Source: Patescibacteria group bacterium
Lineage (GTDB): Bacteria > Patescibacteriota > Minisyncoccia > Sungbacterales > JBBTQR01
Assembly: GCA_038065595.1 (NCBI GenBank)
Contig: JBBTQR010000017.1
Coordinates: forward strand, 1 to 18,060
DNA length: 18,060 nucleotides
Reading direction: 5' to 3'
Part shown: piece by piece, positions 7,993 through 17,830 of the stretch
How the letters are laid out: each line of letters starts with the position of its first letter
Position numbering within the stretch: position 1 is the stretch's first letter
Notes under the pieces: model-generated
Told to the model about the DNA's origin: nothing
What the model saw: the letters and a program-made list of their open reading frames with translations, nothing else
The model's database searches: none
Position numbers and translations under genes: made by a program

Positions 7993-8139
7993 TATACCCG
8001 ACCGAGGGCATTTTTTATAATATATATCTGAACTTATGCGATATGTGGTGGACGCATACAGGCGCTTGATAAATTAAAATTTTAAGCGTACTACTAAAAA
8101 CACGCCCTTTGATATCATGCCAAAATAAGGAGGGATTCT

Positions 8140-8262
8140 ATGGATGCTTTTTTAACAAACGCAGAGCTTGTCGTAATAAATTTTTCCATTTCATTATTTT
8201 GGGTTTTGCTCGTTGTGCTTGTTGCCCTAGCATTTTTCAGCCTTATTGATAATCGCGATTAA
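8140..8262 (+). CDS. 40-aa hydrophobic membrane peptide (toxin-like or bacteriocin-like small protein)
   Basis: Not in the ORF track because it is under 60 aa. A strong SD (AAGGAGGG, 6 nt) precedes the ATG at 8140. It encodes MDAFLTNAELVVINFSISLFWVLLVVLVALAFFSLIDNRD, a single TM helix with a charged C-terminus. It contains the 33-nt repeat shared with the sigma gene. Confidence 0.5.
   Translation: MDAFLTNAELVVINFSISLFWVLLVVLVALAFFSLIDNRD
8166..8198. repeat. 33-bp perfect direct repeat, copy 1 (inside the small-peptide ORF)
   Basis: gcttgtcgtaataaatttttccatttcattatt is identical at 8166-8198 and 14969-15001. In this AT-rich window a 33-nt perfect match is far beyond chance expectation. Confidence 0.9.
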
Positions 8263-8274
8263 AGGAGAAACGCT

Positions 8275-8502
8275 GTGACTACTTTGGAAATCGCATGCTT
8301 GATTTGGATAATTTCTCTTCTTGTTGTTATAACCATTGCTTTCGTGGATAATTTTTTGTATCCTGTCTGCCCCTCTTGTGAGCATAACCTGTATTCACGA
8401 CGATTATCATTTTTTTCTCCCGATGCACTGTGCAAAAAACATGGCACATTCATCATTGCTCTCGCGCATCGCTCTATTTGTTCTGTGACGCACAAAAAAT
8501 AA
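8275..8502 (+). CDS. 75-aa membrane protein with CPSC…C…C motif, function unknown
   Basis: GTG start with an AAAGGAG SD 7 nt upstream, 12 nt after the upstream stop. It has an N-terminal TM helix and is followed by a strong terminator. Confidence 0.5.
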   Translation: MTTLEIACLIWIISLLVVITIAFVDNFLYPVCPSCEHNLYSRRLSFFSPDALCKKHGTFIIALAHRSICSVTHKK

Positions 8503-8515
8503 TAATATCTCGGCA

Positions 8516-8556
8516 TTAAAAACGCCCCGCTTAATTTGAGCGGGGTGTATTTTTAG
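8516..8556. terminator. Rho-independent terminator (bidirectional)
   Basis: Stem cgccccgct (8523-8531) / agcggggtg (8539-8547) with an A-run before and a T-run after. A second hairpin, gttttcgc-tttg-gcgaaaac, at 8578-8596 lies just downstream of the minus-strand gene ending at 8606. Confidence 0.7.
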
Positions 8557-8605
8557 TTCATACCATATAAAAATACAGTTTTCGCTTTGCGAAAACGGTC
8601 CAAAC

Positions 8606-8800
8606 TTATTCTTTACGAGATTTCCAAAAAAGAATAATCGCCAACATTCCAAAAAAAGCTGTGCCAACTCCGCTTACCCACATAGGAATGCTAACCGTTT
8701 CAAATAAAATCTCCCATAAAAAAAGAACGCGGGCAAAGTGCGCAATCGCGATAAAAGCAAAAATCGTTCCAGAAATTTTATGCAGTGTTTTATTCGTCAT
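8606..8800 (-). CDS. Small 2-TM membrane protein, hypothetical
   Basis: ATG at 8800 (MTNKTLHK…) is preceded by an AAAGGAG SD. The longer track ORF extends to 8836. Two hydrophobic helices are present. Confidence 0.5.
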   Translation of the reverse strand: MTNKTLHKISGTIFAFIAIAHFARVLFLWEILFETVSIPMWVSGVGTAFFGMLAIILFWKSRKE

Positions 8801-8967
8801 GCACTCCTTTCTATTTTTTGTTTCCGCCGTTGACACACAGACAGACGAATTTGTTGTGCGTGTCCCGATCTGTCAAACTAAAATAAGCGCTCTGCACTGT
8901 ATGCGAAACTACATCACTTACTATCCTTACCACGCCATCATTTTAAAATATAAATGAACAAAGTTCG

Positions 8968-12113: not shown

Positions 12114-12141
12114 AGAATCAAACGACTAATCCGTTCTTTCG

Positions 12142-13122
12142 CTATTGCAAACTTTCATTTCTCACGACAGTCGCATTGATTGTCGTTCCTTCAAGCGCGC
12201 CGTAAACGCGAATCTTGTGACCAACAAGGAATTGCGATAAAGTCGCCCGCGCCCATAATTTATTTAAGATTGATGTGTCAGGCACAATCTGAACTGTATA
12301 GTCAGTTTCGCTCTTGCGTATAACAATCGTCGTCGGAGCCGTTGTTGAGGCAACAGACTGCAGCTTGCCTTCAAATACCCGCTGAAGAATAGCGTGATCA
12401 ACGAATATTTTTATTTTCTTCGCATCAAGCGTGTTCTGAAGATTATTCCAAACGCCTTGCACATTTATTTTGTCTCCCATTTTAATATCTGAAAACGCAA
12501 CATGAACCCCCGCCTTCATAATTTCAGTTGAACTCCCAACAATAATCGTTTGTAATCCCCTATCTTCAGCATCAAGCATAAAGCTCGTTGAGGATGCGCT
12601 CATTGAAAGAACCCTTCCAAAAAAAGAGGCGTTCCGTTTCTGCACAGACCAGTTTTTTATGTAAGTTGCGCGAACCATAAATAAATCAGCGGTGTCCGCG
12701 CGAAGCATGCCATGTACCGTGAGAAAATCGCCGACGGAAATTTCCGCGATAGAAGAATTCCCATTAAATCGTCTCATAAAATTCGTATTGCCATCAGTTT
12801 CAATTCGCACGCGAAGAGAAAAACTCCCCCATGAAATTATTCCGTGTATCGTTGATGACGCTGAAACAGAATCAACTTTTATATTTTGAAACACGCTTTT
12901 TCCGTTGTTATTGATCTGAATAGATGAGCCCGAAGGAATGTCATCGCCTCGCTTGTCGCGCATATCAACACGAAGTTCTTTTTTCCCGTGAGAGTCATCA
13001 TCCCCGCCTTTATCTGTGTCTTTTTTCGCAAACGCAAATTCTGGAGACATAAACAAAGCGCTTCCTACAATGCTCAATACCGCAAACGCTAAAAATGATT
13101 TTATAGCCATATGTGTAAACAT
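12142..13122 (-). CDS. Secreted protein with tandem ~90-aa beta-rich repeats (possibly DUF5666-like)
   Basis: A signal peptide with an AFA|KKD cleavage motif is present, in-frame with the ATG at 13110 (MAIKSF…). An acidic linker follows, then about three tandem beta-rich repeat units (…VHGML…VRATYI…, …AGVHVAF…, …RVYGALEGTTINATVV…). Its position after a sigma/anti-sigma pair is typical of an envelope stress module. Confidence 0.6.
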   Translation of the reverse strand: MFTHMAIKSFLAFAVLSIVGSALFMSPEFAFAKKDTDKGGDDDSHGKKELRVDMRDKRGDDIPSGSSIQINNNGKSVFQNIKVDSVSASSTIHGIISWGSFSLRVRIETDGNTNFMRRFNGNSSIAEISVGDFLTVHGMLRADTADLFMVRATYIKNWSVQKRNASFFGRVLSMSASSTSFMLDAEDRGLQTIIVGSSTEIMKAGVHVAFSDIKMGDKINVQGVWNNLQNTLDAKKIKIFVDHAILQRVFEGKLQSVASTTAPTTIVIRKSETDYTVQIVPDTSILNKLWARATLSQFLVGHKIRVYGALEGTTINATVVRNESLQ

Positions 13123-13154
13123 TAATTTAATTAAAAATTTTTGACCCTACTATA

Positions 13155-13183
13155 TAGACGAAGTAAGCTGGATTTTCTTACAA
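13155..13183 (-). promoter_or_regulatory. Candidate ECF-sigma-type promoter (TGTAAG-N16-CGTCTA)
   Basis: The minus strand reads TTGTAAG (13183..13177), a 16-nt spacer, and CGTC (13160..13157). This resembles the SigW/SigX/SigM-class consensus TGwAAC-N16-17-CGTC/CGTA. It lies about 30 nt upstream of the secreted-repeat protein gene. Confidence 0.4.
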
Positions 13184-13235
13184 AAACTCTATCGCGGTCC
13201 ATAAGAAAATATTTTTAATCAAAACGCTACCCACA

Positions 13236-14429
13236 CTATTCCATAAATTCGCTTTTTTTATGGGCCTTTTCGCGCATTTCATCTTTTAGAGGGCTTTTAA
13301 TTTTTTCGCCGGAGGCGGACACGCCTTGTTCATTTTCTGATCCTCGTTCATCGTTTGTATCATTTAAATCACGCCCCCGCTTCTTTTCTTGTTTCTCGGT
13401 GCGGTCTCTTCGTATTTCGTTTTTATTTTCATTATGATTATTGTCCCCATTTTCCTCTATTGAAACCTGTATGTGAAATTCCTTATTTGCATTGATCAAT
13501 ACCCGCGCCCTTTCAAGCGTTCTCATCGCTTTCTGAAAAAGCGAAAAGGCTTTGCCGTATTTCCCCTCATTTTGTTTCGTTTTCCCTTCGGCAATTATTT
13601 CAATTACACCTGAAAGTCGTTTTTTTATTTCGTCTGTTGCCAAATCTCCCGATCCTAATGCGATGCCGTCAATAAACGCGTTCATTTCCTGAAGTTTTTT
13701 TTCTACTTCCACACGCATATCTTCGGAAGATTTTTTTGCTTTGTCGTCTTTTTTGTTTTCAATATTTTCTTCTAAATTTTTTCTTTTTTTACCAACTTCC
13801 CGTATAGCATTTTGCGCCGATACGGTAATTGGCGCAAGCGCATAATCCGAATCCGCGTCATCTTCGGTTAATTTTTGAAGGATTTTATCATGCGCCTCAA
13901 GTTCCGCCTCAAAATTAGAATTAATGCGCGCTGCGACTTCAAAATCTCCACCATTTTCAATGGTTGCTATTTTTATTTCTGCGTTTTTACGATGCTCGTT
14001 GAATTTTTCCTGAAGGGCTAAGCGAACCTCTGGCGTAATAATTCTTTTTTCAACCGTCAATCGTTCGGACTCTTCCAGTCGTTTTGTAGCAAGTTTTGTT
14101 TCCCATTCTACCCTTGATTTTGGAGAAAATTTTAACAATCCACGAATCTCTTCGTTTACATTAATTTTTACCGGATACAGAATATCTCCGGGAAGCGTTC
14201 CCTCTGCTCCAAATGCGATTCCCGCTCCCGAAAGCATGCTTGCGATAAGCACGAGTGGAACGGTTCTGTGTATCGCGAAAAACGCGAAAAGCTGGTCGCG
14301 TAATGCCACGCGAATCGGTGGGCGATATGCGTGCATATAAATGCGAAGCTCATTTCTAACGCGCGCGCGTTCATTTTCGGCAAGAGATATATTTTTCGCT
14401 TGCTGTATTATTTCGTGAAAGTTTTTCAT
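13236..14429 (-). CDS. Putative membrane-anchored anti-sigma factor (short cytoplasmic N-domain, 1 TM, long coiled-coil/charged ectodomain; possibly DUF5667-like)
   Basis: It has an ATGA overlap with the upstream ECF sigma gene. A single TM helix lies around residues 60-80 (LVLIASMLSGAGIAFGA). The K/E-rich helical extracytoplasmic region ends in a low-complexity acidic/basic tail. Confidence 0.55.
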   Translation of the reverse strand: MKNFHEIIQQAKNISLAENERARVRNELRIYMHAYRPPIRVALRDQLFAFFAIHRTVPLVLIASMLSGAGIAFGAEGTLPGDILYPVKINVNEEIRGLLKFSPKSRVEWETKLATKRLEESERLTVEKRIITPEVRLALQEKFNEHRKNAEIKIATIENGGDFEVAARINSNFEAELEAHDKILQKLTEDDADSDYALAPITVSAQNAIREVGKKRKNLEENIENKKDDKAKKSSEDMRVEVEKKLQEMNAFIDGIALGSGDLATDEIKKRLSGVIEIIAEGKTKQNEGKYGKAFSLFQKAMRTLERARVLINANKEFHIQVSIEENGDNNHNENKNEIRRDRTEKQEKKRGRDLNDTNDERGSENEQGVSASGEKIKSPLKDEMREKAHKKSEFME

Positions 14430-14992
14430 ATTTCAAAAATATGTTTTACCGATTGTAATCCTCGATGAATACGCACTGAAACGGCGTTTTCGCTTTCATT
14501 CAAAATCTTGGCAATTTCGCTAGGCGACATATCATCAACATACCGCATAATTACAACATCCCGATATTTTTTATCAATGGAATTAATCGCTTCAATGACC
14601 TCGCGTGTTTCAGCCGAATGACGCATAGCGATGTGTCCGGCTATCGCGGGATCAAAACCAAATTCTTCCTGCATTGTATCCAAAGATTCTTCTCGTTTTT
14701 TCTTCCAGTCATCAATGATTAAATTATTGGCAACTTTATATAAAAACGCTCTGATGTTGGTAACTTCATTGCCGGAAGCAAGATATTCCCATGTCTTTGT
14801 ATACGCTTCCTGCATTACATCGCGCGCGATTTCTTCGTCATATACACGGAAAAAACAATGCCTAAATATGGCGTCAGAATGTTCATCGTATGCATTAATA
14901 AACGGTATTAAACCATTTGTTCCGACGGCACGCTGAGGAGGTGTGCGGAAGCGCCCACCTCCCTCATCGCTTGTCGTAATAAATTTTTCCAT
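14426..14992 (-). CDS. ECF (group IV) RNA polymerase sigma-70 factor
   Basis: Region 2 is FRHCFFRVYDEEIARDVMQEAYTKTWEYL. Region 4 HTH is DVVIMRYVDDMSPSEIAKILNESENAVSVRIHRGLQSVK. The start is ambiguous between the ATG at 14992 (MEKFITTS…) and a TTG at 15058. Confidence 0.9.
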   Translation of the reverse strand: MEKFITTSDEGGGRFRTPPQRAVGTNGLIPFINAYDEHSDAIFRHCFFRVYDEEIARDVMQEAYTKTWEYLASGNEVTNIRAFLYKVANNLIIDDWKKKREESLDTMQEEFGFDPAIAGHIAMRHSAETREVIEAINSIDKKYRDVVIMRYVDDMSPSEIAKILNESENAVSVRIHRGLQSVKHIFEI

Positions 14993-15001
14993 TTCATTAT
15001 T
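14969..15001. repeat. 33-bp perfect direct repeat, copy 2 (covers the ECF sigma ATG and first 8 codons on the opposite strand)
   Basis: The same 33-mer as at 8166-8198. On the minus strand it reads AATAATGAA-ATG GAA AAA TTT ATT ACG ACA AGC, which is nt -9 to +24 of the sigma start. Confidence 0.9.
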
Positions 15002-15155
15002 ACCCGTATTGTTCTTTATATAAGACGAAATAATGCCATATTTCTTACGCAAAAACAATGCAAAATGGCAAGAGTATAAACTCCTGTTTTTTTTAAAACC
15101 CCCTCATTCCCGTCTGTTTATATAAAGATTTTTTATACTGGCAAGCAAAAAACTA

Positions 15156-15181
15156 CCAATAAAAACAAGTGTTTTTATTGG
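15156..15181 (-). terminator. AT-rich hairpin followed by a T-run on the minus strand (possible terminator or insulator upstream of the sigma promoter)
   Basis: ccaataaaaac-aagt-gtttttattgg is an 11-bp stem. On the minus strand it is followed by TAGTTTTTTG. Confidence 0.3.
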
Positions 15182-15254
15182 TACAAAAAAGTTATCCACA
15201 GTTATGCATACAATTACACTTGCGTATTTTTTTCGCAGTGATAGACTATAAAAT

Positions 15255-15345
15255 GTAACTTAGGTTACATCGTTCTTTCATCTCGGGGCTTCGGTCCCAC
15301 ATTTTCTCTTCTTGGGGTTTGCTACGGCAAACCCTTTTTATTTTA
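15255..15345 (+). ncRNA. Candidate ~90-nt small RNA (three hairpins including a C(UUCG)G tetraloop, with an intrinsic terminator)
   Basis: On the + strand the first hairpin is gtaac-ttag-gttac (15257-15270). The second is gggGC-UUCG-GUccc (a 5-bp stem with a G-U wobble and a UUCG tetraloop). The third is the terminator ggggtttgc-tacg-gcaaaccc followed by TTTTTATTTT (15314-15345). A weak upstream promoter reads TTGCGT-N16-TAGACT (15220-15247). There is no ORF, and it is antisense to the flanking minus-strand genes. Confidence 0.35.
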
Positions 15346-15784
15346 ACTAGACTAGATATGATCATTTCTCACGATAGAACAAAAACCGCCAAATGCGTGT
15401 GCACATTACCTTCCGGTTCCACATGGACCACGGCATTGCTTGCGTCAATTGTCGGAGAACGATGAGTTGTTTTTGGAGTAGAACGAATTCCCAAGCTTGT
15501 TACATTTGGAGCAAAAAATCTTAATACATATAAATAGGCGTATACATTCGCGCATTCTAAAATTCTTATGGCGGGACCGACACTCAGACTTCCCCAAGAA
15601 GCTCCATTCAATAAAATTCTCGTTTCAGCGGCCGCCGATACTATGTTAAAAGGTCTGGTTCTACAATTAAAAATCGGGGGGCACTTGTCATCCCGATACA
15701 AAACCAAATCTGGAAAATAAAAAAAACCGCAAACGAAAAATTAAATATAGAAAAATTCGACGGGTTTGCGTTTGTTCCACTTGT

Positions 15785-15821
15785 TTAAAAAATCCCCAAT
15801 TCGCGATATCGCGAATTGGGG
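15785..15821 (-). terminator. Rho-independent terminator of the flotillin-like gene
   Basis: A 28-nt perfect palindrome ccccaattcgcgat|atcgcgaattgggg (15793-15820). On the minus strand it is followed by ATTTTTTAAAC, and it lies 36 nt after the stop at 15857. Confidence 0.75.
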
Positions 15822-15856
15822 GCTCTGCTCATTTATAGAGCGTTTCTCCTTCTGCT

Positions 15857-17830
15857 TTAAATTTTCTTTGTAGCGCCCTCCTTTGTTTCCAGTGATAAAG
15901 GCTCGGAAGGTTCGCTCGTTTTTGCGCCATCTTTCGTTCCACGCGCTAAATCCTTCAGCATCGGAATCAGGAGAGCGAATGGAGACGCAGACGATCCGTT
16001 TCCGCTTCCGGCTACATACGCTTCCGGAACAATCGGATGCTTACTTTCTGCAAGTTTGGCAATAGCTTGAATTACCATAGCGTTCTCTTGGCCAAGAGCT
16101 CCAGCGAGGGCTTGCAAAGTTTTTTCTATATACTCTGCTTCGCCAAGAGCCTCTTTTTTCCGCGCCGTTGCCATATCTTCCCGAATCTGAATTTCTGTTT
16201 GCGCGTTGACAACGTCCTTTTTCCTATTGGCCCGCGCAGTTGCCTCCTCCTTTTCAGCGCGTTTTTCTTCTGCCTCCTTTTCTACCTTAAGCGTTTCCTT
16301 GCTCGCTTCAGCGATGGTGCGATTTTTCCGCACAGTCATATATTCAGAATCGCCAATTACTTCTTGGATGATGATATCTTCAAGCTCAACGCTAAATAGC
16401 ATTAGCTCTTTTCTCATTTCGTCTTTAAGCTTGGCGCGAAAAGTCTCTTGATTATCAAGAAGATCTTCGGCGTTACTATCGCGAACAGCCTTTGTGGCAA
16501 ATCCAAGCATTCGCGCTGCCATAAAATCCTTGATAAACCCATGCATTGAACCAAAACTCGCAATAACCATTGACGCTGACTCACTCGGAACAACGGCAAG
16601 GGCATCAACATCAAGGGTCATTGAAATATTATTTTTTGAAAGCGCTGTGATGCTTTTCAATTCTTTATCAAGTCCGTGATCCGAACTTCTATTTGGACTG
16701 AAAAAAAGCGTCAAAAGATTCGTCTGCGCTCTATGAATTTGCAAGACCTCAGTATTGATAAGATACTGCCCCTGCGAAAGAGCGTTGTACCACACCCCGT
16801 GATGTCCCGGGCGAACGATTGCTCCATATTTGAAGACGGCGTCTGTAATGTCAAAAGCAGGAAGTCCTAAGCCAGCACTTATGACAAGCGCTTCTCCGGG
16901 AGCAACCGTGACGATGTCAACTATTTTAACCGAGAAAAGCTTTTTGTTGATTGCATAATTTCCTGACGCAAGTGGATAAAACTGCGGTCCCATTTTTCCG
17001 CCATTCTCAAAGAATGCTGCGGGATTCTGGAAATTTTCATGCAGATTATTATTTGACCGCAAGACATATTCCAAAAGTTTTTGACCAAGTTCATGCTCTT
17101 TGTCTTTTCTCGTATCCCATAATTCGGTTTTCAGAATTTTTGGATTATCAAGTTCAGCTTCTTTTCGCGCGACATCCCCAAACTCTCCAATACGACACGC
17201 AACAGCATCAGGTGGAAGCGGAGACCCGTCCAAACAGGTAACAATTCCCATTTTCTGATTTGAAATCGTTGTAAGTTCAAAATCCTCTTTTGTAAATCCA
17301 AAATCCTTATACGAAAGAGTTCTCGCAACTTGTTTTTCAACAAGATCAAGATCCGACATAACGCCGAAAACTTTTGCAAGCGTTGCAATGGTAAATCCAA
17401 CTGGATGAATCGGAAGGAATGTTCCCGGAGGCAGAACGAGTCGCTGAATACCCTTTTGACCGTTCTCAAGAATAAATTTTCTAATATCCTCAAACCGTCC
17501 GTACACCTCTTTATATTCAGCGGTCTTCTGCCCGGGTCTTAATCCGTGTCCAACATTCGCAATCACATACCCGATCTTATCTCCTTCAACGCGAGCCCAC
17601 GGATGGATTTCGTGCCGATAGAAAATTGGATCGGCGTAGCGCCACCCTGACATTTTGAGAGTCGGCTGATATCCCGCCTCATTTCGAAATGCGACAGGAT
17701 CACGCGTTGCGCCATTGAACGAAAACCGTTTATACAGAATACCAATATGATGCGCCGGAACCTCAAAGATTCCGAACCATATATACACGCCCGCGACTAC
17801 GATCGCTAAAAATCCTAAAAAGATTTCCAT
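15857..17830 (-). CDS. Flotillin-like SPFH/Band-7 domain membrane protein (long form)
   Basis: 657 aa with a good SD (GGAAGGGGGATTCAG-ATG). It has an N-terminal TM helix and a central SPFH-like region. The C-terminal E/A/K-rich heptad region (KEAEEKRAEKEEATARANRKK…ARKKEALGEAEY) is typical of flotillin (FloT/YuaG-like) coiled-coil 'flotillin repeats'. The Ser/Gly-rich tail may be disordered. Confidence 0.6.
   Translation of the reverse strand: MEIFLGFLAIVVAGVYIWFGIFEVPAHHIGILYKRFSFNGATRDPVAFRNEAGYQPTLKMSGWRYADPIFYRHEIHPWARVEGDKIGYVIANVGHGLRPGQKTAEYKEVYGRFEDIRKFILENGQKGIQRLVLPPGTFLPIHPVGFTIATLAKVFGVMSDLDLVEKQVARTLSYKDFGFTKEDFELTTISNQKMGIVTCLDGSPLPPDAVACRIGEFGDVARKEAELDNPKILKTELWDTRKDKEHELGQKLLEYVLRSNNNLHENFQNPAAFFENGGKMGPQFYPLASGNYAINKKLFSVKIVDIVTVAPGEALVISAGLGLPAFDITDAVFKYGAIVRPGHHGVWYNALSQGQYLINTEVLQIHRAQTNLLTLFFSPNRSSDHGLDKELKSITALSKNNISMTLDVDALAVVPSESASMVIASFGSMHGFIKDFMAARMLGFATKAVRDSNAEDLLDNQETFRAKLKDEMRKELMLFSVELEDIIIQEVIGDSEYMTVRKNRTIAEASKETLKVEKEAEEKRAEKEEATARANRKKDVVNAQTEIQIREDMATARKKEALGEAEYIEKTLQALAGALGQENAMVIQAIAKLAESKHPIVPEAYVAGSGNGSSASPFALLIPMLKDLARGTKDGAKTSEPSEPLSLETKEGATKKI

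Follow-up and report, generated by a model that had tools for sequence, protein, structure and literature searches.

An ORF-free, hairpin-rich island in a Patescibacteria contig very probably holds a dead pcm gene among relic regulatory DNA and terminators

What fills a gap of 798 bp without a long open reading frame (ORF), at positions 15059-15856 of a contig from the Patescibacteria, whose genomes are small and densely coding? The gap lies in a stretch of 18,060 nucleotides from contig JBBTQR010000017.1, referred to here as the window, which makes up nearly all of a metagenome contig from Hainich groundwater (ENA ERZ1292628, 18,638 bp). The gap is bordered by two genes:

14426-15058, minus strand: ECF-type sigma gene, left neighbour of the gap
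15857-17830, minus strand: SPFH/Band7 "flotillin-like" gene of 657 aa, right neighbour of the gap

The original prediction had described the gap as an ORF-free island between the sigma operon and the flotillin gene, with raised GC content and dense hairpins, set in DNA otherwise tightly packed with genes, and had offered structured noncoding RNAs (ncRNAs) or a decayed gene as its possible content. The lack of ORFs is borne out, the sole ORF longer than 60 aa being one of 112 aa on the minus strand, and the hairpins are both real and enriched, with a terminator scan finding six terminator-like sites in 15059-15856 versus 1.3 +/- 1.2 expected. The GC content does not fit the description: at 0.427, 15360-15710 is coding-like and not raised, the window having 0.409 and the two flanking genes 0.39 and 0.446, and the value is conspicuous only next to that of 15059-15249 (0.31), which is truly intergenic. 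Nor is all of the flanking DNA tightly packed, since 7993-8967 is another stretch with short ORFs only and is low in coding content, so that 15059-15856 is not the sole gap of the window. The short ORFs in this ~1-kb stretch are found on both strands, several of them are hydrophobic, and a terminator-like hairpin lies near 8520-8545. With respect to the gap itself, an assembly artefact is ruled out by eight contigs from independent assemblies, which show 100% identity in all their overlaps within 14900-15900 (seven short ones cover 14972-15900).

Every stop-to-stop segment of the gap was translated and scanned against Pfam, and two plus-strand fragments in different frames matched successive parts of the PCMT family profile (PF01135), one at 15538-15717 (E = 3.8e-5, profile positions 137-169, in a single frame) and the other at 15615-15785 (E = 0.016, profile positions 163-206). 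One single-frame fragment alone scores 24 bits against Pfam PCMT, and the frames joined together, with stops written as X, score 78 bits (E = 1e-21, profile positions 71-206 of 210; cut-off, 20.3). The joined translation also matches the structure of a PIMT enzyme (PDB 1jg1, E = 3e-15). A protein search with this reconstruction retrieved 1300 homologs, mostly Patescibacteria PCMTs at ~50-57% identity, and the best of them is an intact protein of 212 aa (P0002) at 74% identity. The feature is as follows:

15412-15788, plus strand: pcm (protein-L-isoaspartate O-methyltransferase) pseudogene, from codon 82 to the stop, identified by Pfam PCMT and synteny

We conclude with high confidence that 15412-15788 is a dead pcm gene, which underwent a repeat-associated 5' loss and further lesions, and that the island is a gene being lost. 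The decayed-gene option was thus the correct one for this core, in the form of a plus-strand pcm pseudogene and not of the minus-strand ORF that the original prediction had examined.

Set beside the Pcm/PIMT family (PF01135; TIGR00080 and NF001453; 1jg1), the remnant aligns with approximately positions 82-206 of the profile and keeps the region after motif I, the ...EAPFDKILVSAAA... block, and the C-terminal ...FVPL motif. Its ancestral C-terminus is retained as ...FDGFAFVPLV, followed by a TAA stop at 15786-15788. Unlike the family, it is without the N-terminal 81 residues and the start, is interrupted by two in-frame stops and one frameshift, and is altered by the replacement G85T. The two NCBIfam PIMT equivalogs (TIGR00080 and NF001453) match over positions 86-210 with 75 and 74 bits, below their cut-offs of 188 and 159 because the N-terminal 40% is missing; at 75 bits versus 188, the remnant is a pseudogene and not a functional equivalog member. 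An N-terminal reading in frame 2 ("GYIVLSS...GKPFLF," 15245-15343), weakly aligned by one PDB match, was rejected, since its DNA aligns with noncoding sequence that precedes the intact gene of a related contig (L009; see below).

The remnant falls in a subfamily with the motif GSGSGWTTALL that is found in Patescibacteria, and its nearest intact member, the one that is 74% identical, is also syntenic with it. Across the loci retrieved in a search of genome contigs (L013-L092), PCMTs with this motif are present in many Patescibacteria and in Campylobacterota (Sulfurovum, Sulfurimonas, and Sulfurospirillum) at a similar identity of 50-60%, and one Woesearchaeota MAG also carries a PCMT of this type. 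This distribution hints at horizontal transfer of the GSGSGWTTALL type of pcm.

The intact protein P0002 is encoded on four Hainich groundwater contigs (L009-L012), which come from the same aquifer as the window. L009 and L010 carry a Peptidase_C39 gene (minus strand), the intact pcm (plus strand), and a flotillin homolog (minus strand), with pcm convergent with the flotillin gene, and the window has the same neighbours as L009, save for an extra three-gene sigma operon. In a more distant relative (L173, with a flotillin 52% identical), the PCMT gene is also convergent and lies two genes from the flotillin gene. A search of genome contigs with the flotillin protein as the query found no relatives. 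Starting from nucleotide 244 (codon 82) of the L009 gene, 15412-15788 aligns with 87% nucleotide identity. The intact pcm of L009 has an insertion of its own of ~120 nt at its 3' end (~2065-2190), where the window keeps the ancestral C-terminus; through this insertion the C-terminal coding motif TTTGCATTTGTNCC is present twice and the protein gains a tail of 11 aa (...ISEKQEKYRLP), and a small hairpin (TTATAGGAAGCTGAACTTCCTATAA) lies within the inserted DNA.

The DNA alignment with L009 yields five lesions in pcm, which, like the homology and the synteny, are seen directly in the data:

15346-15411: 5' truncation, with 328 nt of ancestral DNA (5' UTR and codons 1-81) replaced by 66 nt
15421-15423, plus strand: missense change G85T, GGA to ACA
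15463-15465, plus strand: nonsense change at G99, GGA to TGA
15534-15545, plus strand: 12-nt insertion with a TAG stop at 15535-15537
15676-15681, plus strand: 1-nt deletion (one G) in a G-run, giving a -1 frameshift

No uninterrupted, start-bearing ORF spans the ~200-aa PCMT domain, with codons 1-81 absent and the remainder broken by the TGA, the TAG, and the -1 frameshift. The SAM-binding motif I (G-x-G-x-G; GSGSGW) is broken as well and reads (foreign)-S-G-S-T-W in the window, G81 being lost and G85 changed to T; G81, G83, G85, and G99 are all invariant among 22 family members. The 12-nt insertion is absent from the aligned homologs, that is, from the L009 alignment and from five homolog sequences.

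The DNA that took the place of the 5' part of the gene is foreign to the locus:

15346-15411, no strand assigned: foreign 66 nt in place of the 328 nt of ancestral DNA, recognized by L009 alignment and repeat homology

Approximately 60 nt of this insert (15352-15411, in the minus-strand reading) are homologous to one half of a palindromic repeat at 157-256, which consists of 34-nt inverted arms (157-190 and 223-256, 82% complementary) and a 32-nt loop. An inverted repeat of 29 nt at 93% (I2) joins the two sites, and GGTAATGTGCACAC occurs 3 times in the window versus 0.03 expected. The repeat at 157-256 directly adjoins a 5'-truncated IS30-family transposase (ORF 215-580), of which only the C-terminal third is left, matching NF033563 over profile positions 179-267 of 267. 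At both sites, IS30 and pcm, the same repeat end (...GTGTGCACATTACC) faces the surviving 3' part of the truncated gene. The repeat motif gave no match in 164 other loci or in a viral contig collection (0 matches), and nothing was on record for the protein of the IS30 fragment. The contig stops ~30 nt beyond position 1 of the window, probably because of this repeat.

A deletion associated with a mobile repeat may thus have truncated pcm. The inverted arms, and a half-copy adjoining 5'-truncated genes, are like those expected of truncation mediated by an IS or MITE in an IS30 context; no target-site duplication was identified within the 18 kb of genome available, and assignment of the repeat to the MITE class is putative. 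We infer the following sequence of events and role of a mobile element. The ancestor would have had an intact plus-strand pcm, convergent with the flotillin-like gene and sharing a terminator region with it. A rearrangement tied to the small palindromic repeat would have removed the ribosome-binding region and codons 1-81 of pcm, leaving 66 nt of repeat-derived DNA, and the remaining 3' two-thirds would then, or also, have gained four lesions (the missense change, the TGA, the 12-nt TAG insertion, and the -1 frameshift).

The dN/dS value versus L009 is 0.30 for the remnant, 0.13 for the flotillin gene, and 0.20 for the peptidase gene. The remnant is no more diverged from L009 than its neighbours are (sliding identity, 0.83-0.92; dS, 0.31 versus about 0.85), which means that either the inactivation is recent or the segment was recently exchanged. 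A long-dead pseudogene would be expected to be more degraded than this, and the inactivation therefore looks recent on the basis of sequence divergence, in a comparison of lesions that is underlain by a single close relative lineage (L009-L012).

The left third of the gap (15059-15345) is not part of the pseudogene and shows ~82% identity, with indels, to the noncoding DNA that precedes the intact pcm of L009. A series of plus-strand features lies in this third, as follows:

15220-15247, plus strand: weak candidate promoter, TTGCGT-16 nt-TAGACT (speculative; TTGCAT-16-TAAAGT in L009)
15254-15269, plus strand: hairpin H1, from the fold
15285-15298, plus strand: hairpin H2 with a cUUCGg loop, from the fold
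15314-15335 (to 15345), plus strand: hairpin H3 with a cUACGg loop, then UUUUUAUUUU, a predicted intrinsic terminator, from the fold and the terminator scan

The original prediction had listed stem-loops at 15156-15181 and 15257-15345, and both are real (z = -4.4 and z = -6.0, respectively); the latter belongs to the H1-H3 region, which is conserved upstream of intact pcm in L009-L011. The GC-rich stem, U-tract, and short stable tetraloop predicted for 15314-15345 are like those of intrinsic terminators, and the H3 stem is maintained in relatives by coordinated stem-restoring substitutions; unlike such terminators, H3 has no recognisable gene upstream.

Besides the pcm pseudogene, and in addition to it rather than as an alternative, 15254-15345 (plus strand) might be a functional small RNA (sRNA), or an attenuating leader of pcm, that has outlived the gene, with transcription starting at the weak promoter at ~15220-15247 and ending at H3. 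We consider this doubtful, though worth keeping in mind in light of four observations. The stability of the 15250-15345 fold is very high (z = -6.0). The loops of H2 and H3 are UNCG loops closed by a C-G pair and, together with the G.U pairs in H2 and in H3 of the window, work on the plus strand only; the linkers between H1, H2, and H3 are CU-rich and single-stranded. Over 1699 nt, L011 and L009 are separated by no more than 4 substitutions, every one of them in H3, where their joint effect is to restore a perfect stem of 8 bp with its register shifted, and with the stem and the U-tract kept in three variants the hairpin appears to be maintained, as expected for an intrinsic terminator. Finally, no conserved ORF was found upstream of H3, and no small ORF is common to the window and L009, so that the terminator would end a noncoding transcript (or may end a pcm leader).

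Against this stand the poor conservation of H1 in L009, the different length of the H2 loop (4 nt versus 10 nt), and the fact that conservation of the hairpin block (0.87-0.89) equals that of the neighbouring DNA and may hence reflect recent ancestry only. A promoter scan returned 0 sites, with the candidate at 15220-15247 below its threshold. A covariance model of H2 and H3 gave nothing significant in 160 pcm loci of more distant relatives (best E = 0.4), and Rfam gave no match in the window or in L009, with only sub-threshold, terminator-driven matches in the intact upstream region of the latter. The clustered differences (L011 850-873 versus L009 1351-1366) occur in a contig with a coverage of 3x; selection for the hairpin might explain them, as might a template-switch mutation in a quasi-palindrome or an error due to low coverage. 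That this candidate ~90-nt plus-strand element is a previously undescribed Patescibacteria sRNA or attenuator, persisting after the death of pcm, appears to us a little less likely again.

The remainder of the island is made up of the promoter region of the sigma operon, the old pcm upstream region with its plus-strand terminator hairpin, and the terminator of the flotillin-like gene. The features on the minus strand are as follows:

15005-15153, minus strand: putative promoter and 5' region of the sigma operon, from L009 alignments
15154-15183, minus strand: AT-rich, perfect 13-bp hairpin followed by T6, terminator-like in its presumed function, from the terminator scan and the fold
15794-15821, minus strand: 12-bp GC-rich palindromic hairpin followed by a T6 run (tail ATTTTTT), from the terminator scan and L009 alignment

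The 28-nt palindrome of the original prediction is real and is located at 15794-15821, after the flotillin stop and at the convergent end of pcm, and it is read here as a predicted terminator of the flotillin-like gene, in a region common to the convergent pcm. As in intrinsic terminators of convergent genes, it combines a GC-rich stem with a U-tract, and its stem is kept in L009 by one compensatory change (C15802-G15813 to T-A). The AT-rich hairpin is specific to the window, as the fold of 15150-15190 (z = -4.4) has a degenerate equivalent in L009 (z = -0.7).

The block 15005-15075 is conserved in L009 although L009 has no sigma operon. Sigma-70 homology starts only at approximately residue 53 of the 210-aa sigma ORF, the listed start of which is a TTG at 15058, and the first ~20 codons of the listed ORF overlap the block that is conserved as noncoding DNA in L009. 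Given this late onset of homology, translation probably begins at the ATG of MEKFITTS, near 14994, and the noncoding gap would then measure ~860 bp. The sigma/DUF5667/DUF5666 operon (~12130-15005, ~2.9 kb) is an indel with respect to L009 (~1000-1022), in which the terminator hairpin and the promoter-region block on either side are retained, only ~20 nt apart; this suggests either a deletion in the L009 lineage or an insertion in the window. A direct repeat links 8166-8214 with 14969-15017 (33 nt exact; 49 nt at 86%), its plus strand encoding ...LVVINFSISL... of a 40-aa membrane-like ORF (8140-8262) and its antisense the MEKFITTS start of the sigma gene, and it is because of this repeat that k=31 Logan contigs break at 14972.

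Is the core of the island (15360-15790) a structured ncRNA after all, such as a divergent tmRNA, an RNase P RNA, or a novel large RNA? We regard this as highly improbable. The plus strand of 15150-15800 does fold somewhat better than shuffled sequences (z = -2.9 with 20 shuffles, versus z = 0 for the minus strand in folding of the whole gap), but this signal stems largely from the terminator hairpins at the edges, and the GC content is above that of the adjacent AT-rich spacers. Rfam 15 gave 0 matches at the gathering threshold over the whole window and, on 14950-15950 with E <= 10, nothing but unrelated noise (best, 21 bits versus a cut-off of 102), with no tmRNA match even at this level, and ARAGORN found no tRNA or tmRNA (0 genes). 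An intact protein gene can instead be aligned to the core codon by codon, and the joined frames match PCMT (E = 1e-21). The 10-nt resemblance to the tmRNA 5' motif is present as ATTCGACGGG at 15755-15764 and is due to chance, since these nucleotides are the codons F-D-G of the conserved ...KFDGFAFVPL C-terminus and read ATTCGATGGG in L009. Likewise, the atcgggg...tcccgat pairing, which the original prediction had listed among the stable stem-loops, falls in coding-derived sequence, in the codons on either side of the frameshift, and is not conserved in L009. RNase P and tmRNA motifs picked out by eye on both strands were dropped once the PCMT homology appeared.

A similarly slim chance attaches to the reading of the sole longer ORF as a real, lineage-specific protein gene:

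15369-15707, minus strand: 112-aa ORF antisense to the pcm remnant, judged spurious

This ORF is annotated by a gene caller on the public contig, but the 112/123-aa product matches only itself among 5.8 billion proteins and has no Pfam match. As read from the sequence, it begins with a TTG that has no Shine-Dalgarno motif upstream, it is antisense to DNA of unambiguous PCMT coding ancestry, and the equivalent antisense ORF of 165 aa in L009 is likewise an artefact of the pcm gene.

Least probable of all is that pcm remains functional through recoding (read-through of TGA and TAG with a programmed -1 frameshift) or through an alternative genetic code on this contig: the TGA does replace a glycine codon (GGA in L009), in keeping with genetic code 25, in which UGA means glycine and which is used by some candidate-phyla bacteria, and the frameshift is located in a slippery G-run, but the DNA for the start codon, for all of codons 1-81, and for the leading part of the SAM motif is physically gone, the invariant G85 is replaced, the TAG sits in a 12-nt insertion that aligned homologs lack, and TGA is a genuine stop in this genome, where two genes end with it in ATGA overlaps of the typical kind and where, with table 11, the other ORFs are all long, so that TGA as glycine is ruled out and recoding does not rescue pcm.

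Taken as a whole, the island consists of a pcm pseudogene, inactivated recently, together with terminators and relic regulatory DNA, an ordinary and known kind of biology. In terms of annotation, a correction is called for: the 112-aa "hypothetical protein" listed on the public contig is spurious, and the pcm pseudogene on the strand opposite to it is not annotated. For work on similar loci, a search for frameshifted protein homology should come before any proposal of an RNA in ORF-free, hairpin-rich stretches with a typical GC content. For the organism, the recent, repeat-associated loss of pcm, the gene of a protein-repair enzyme, at this locus of an 18-kb contig is a tidy example of ongoing reductive evolution, with an intact pcm ortholog still circulating in the same aquifer.
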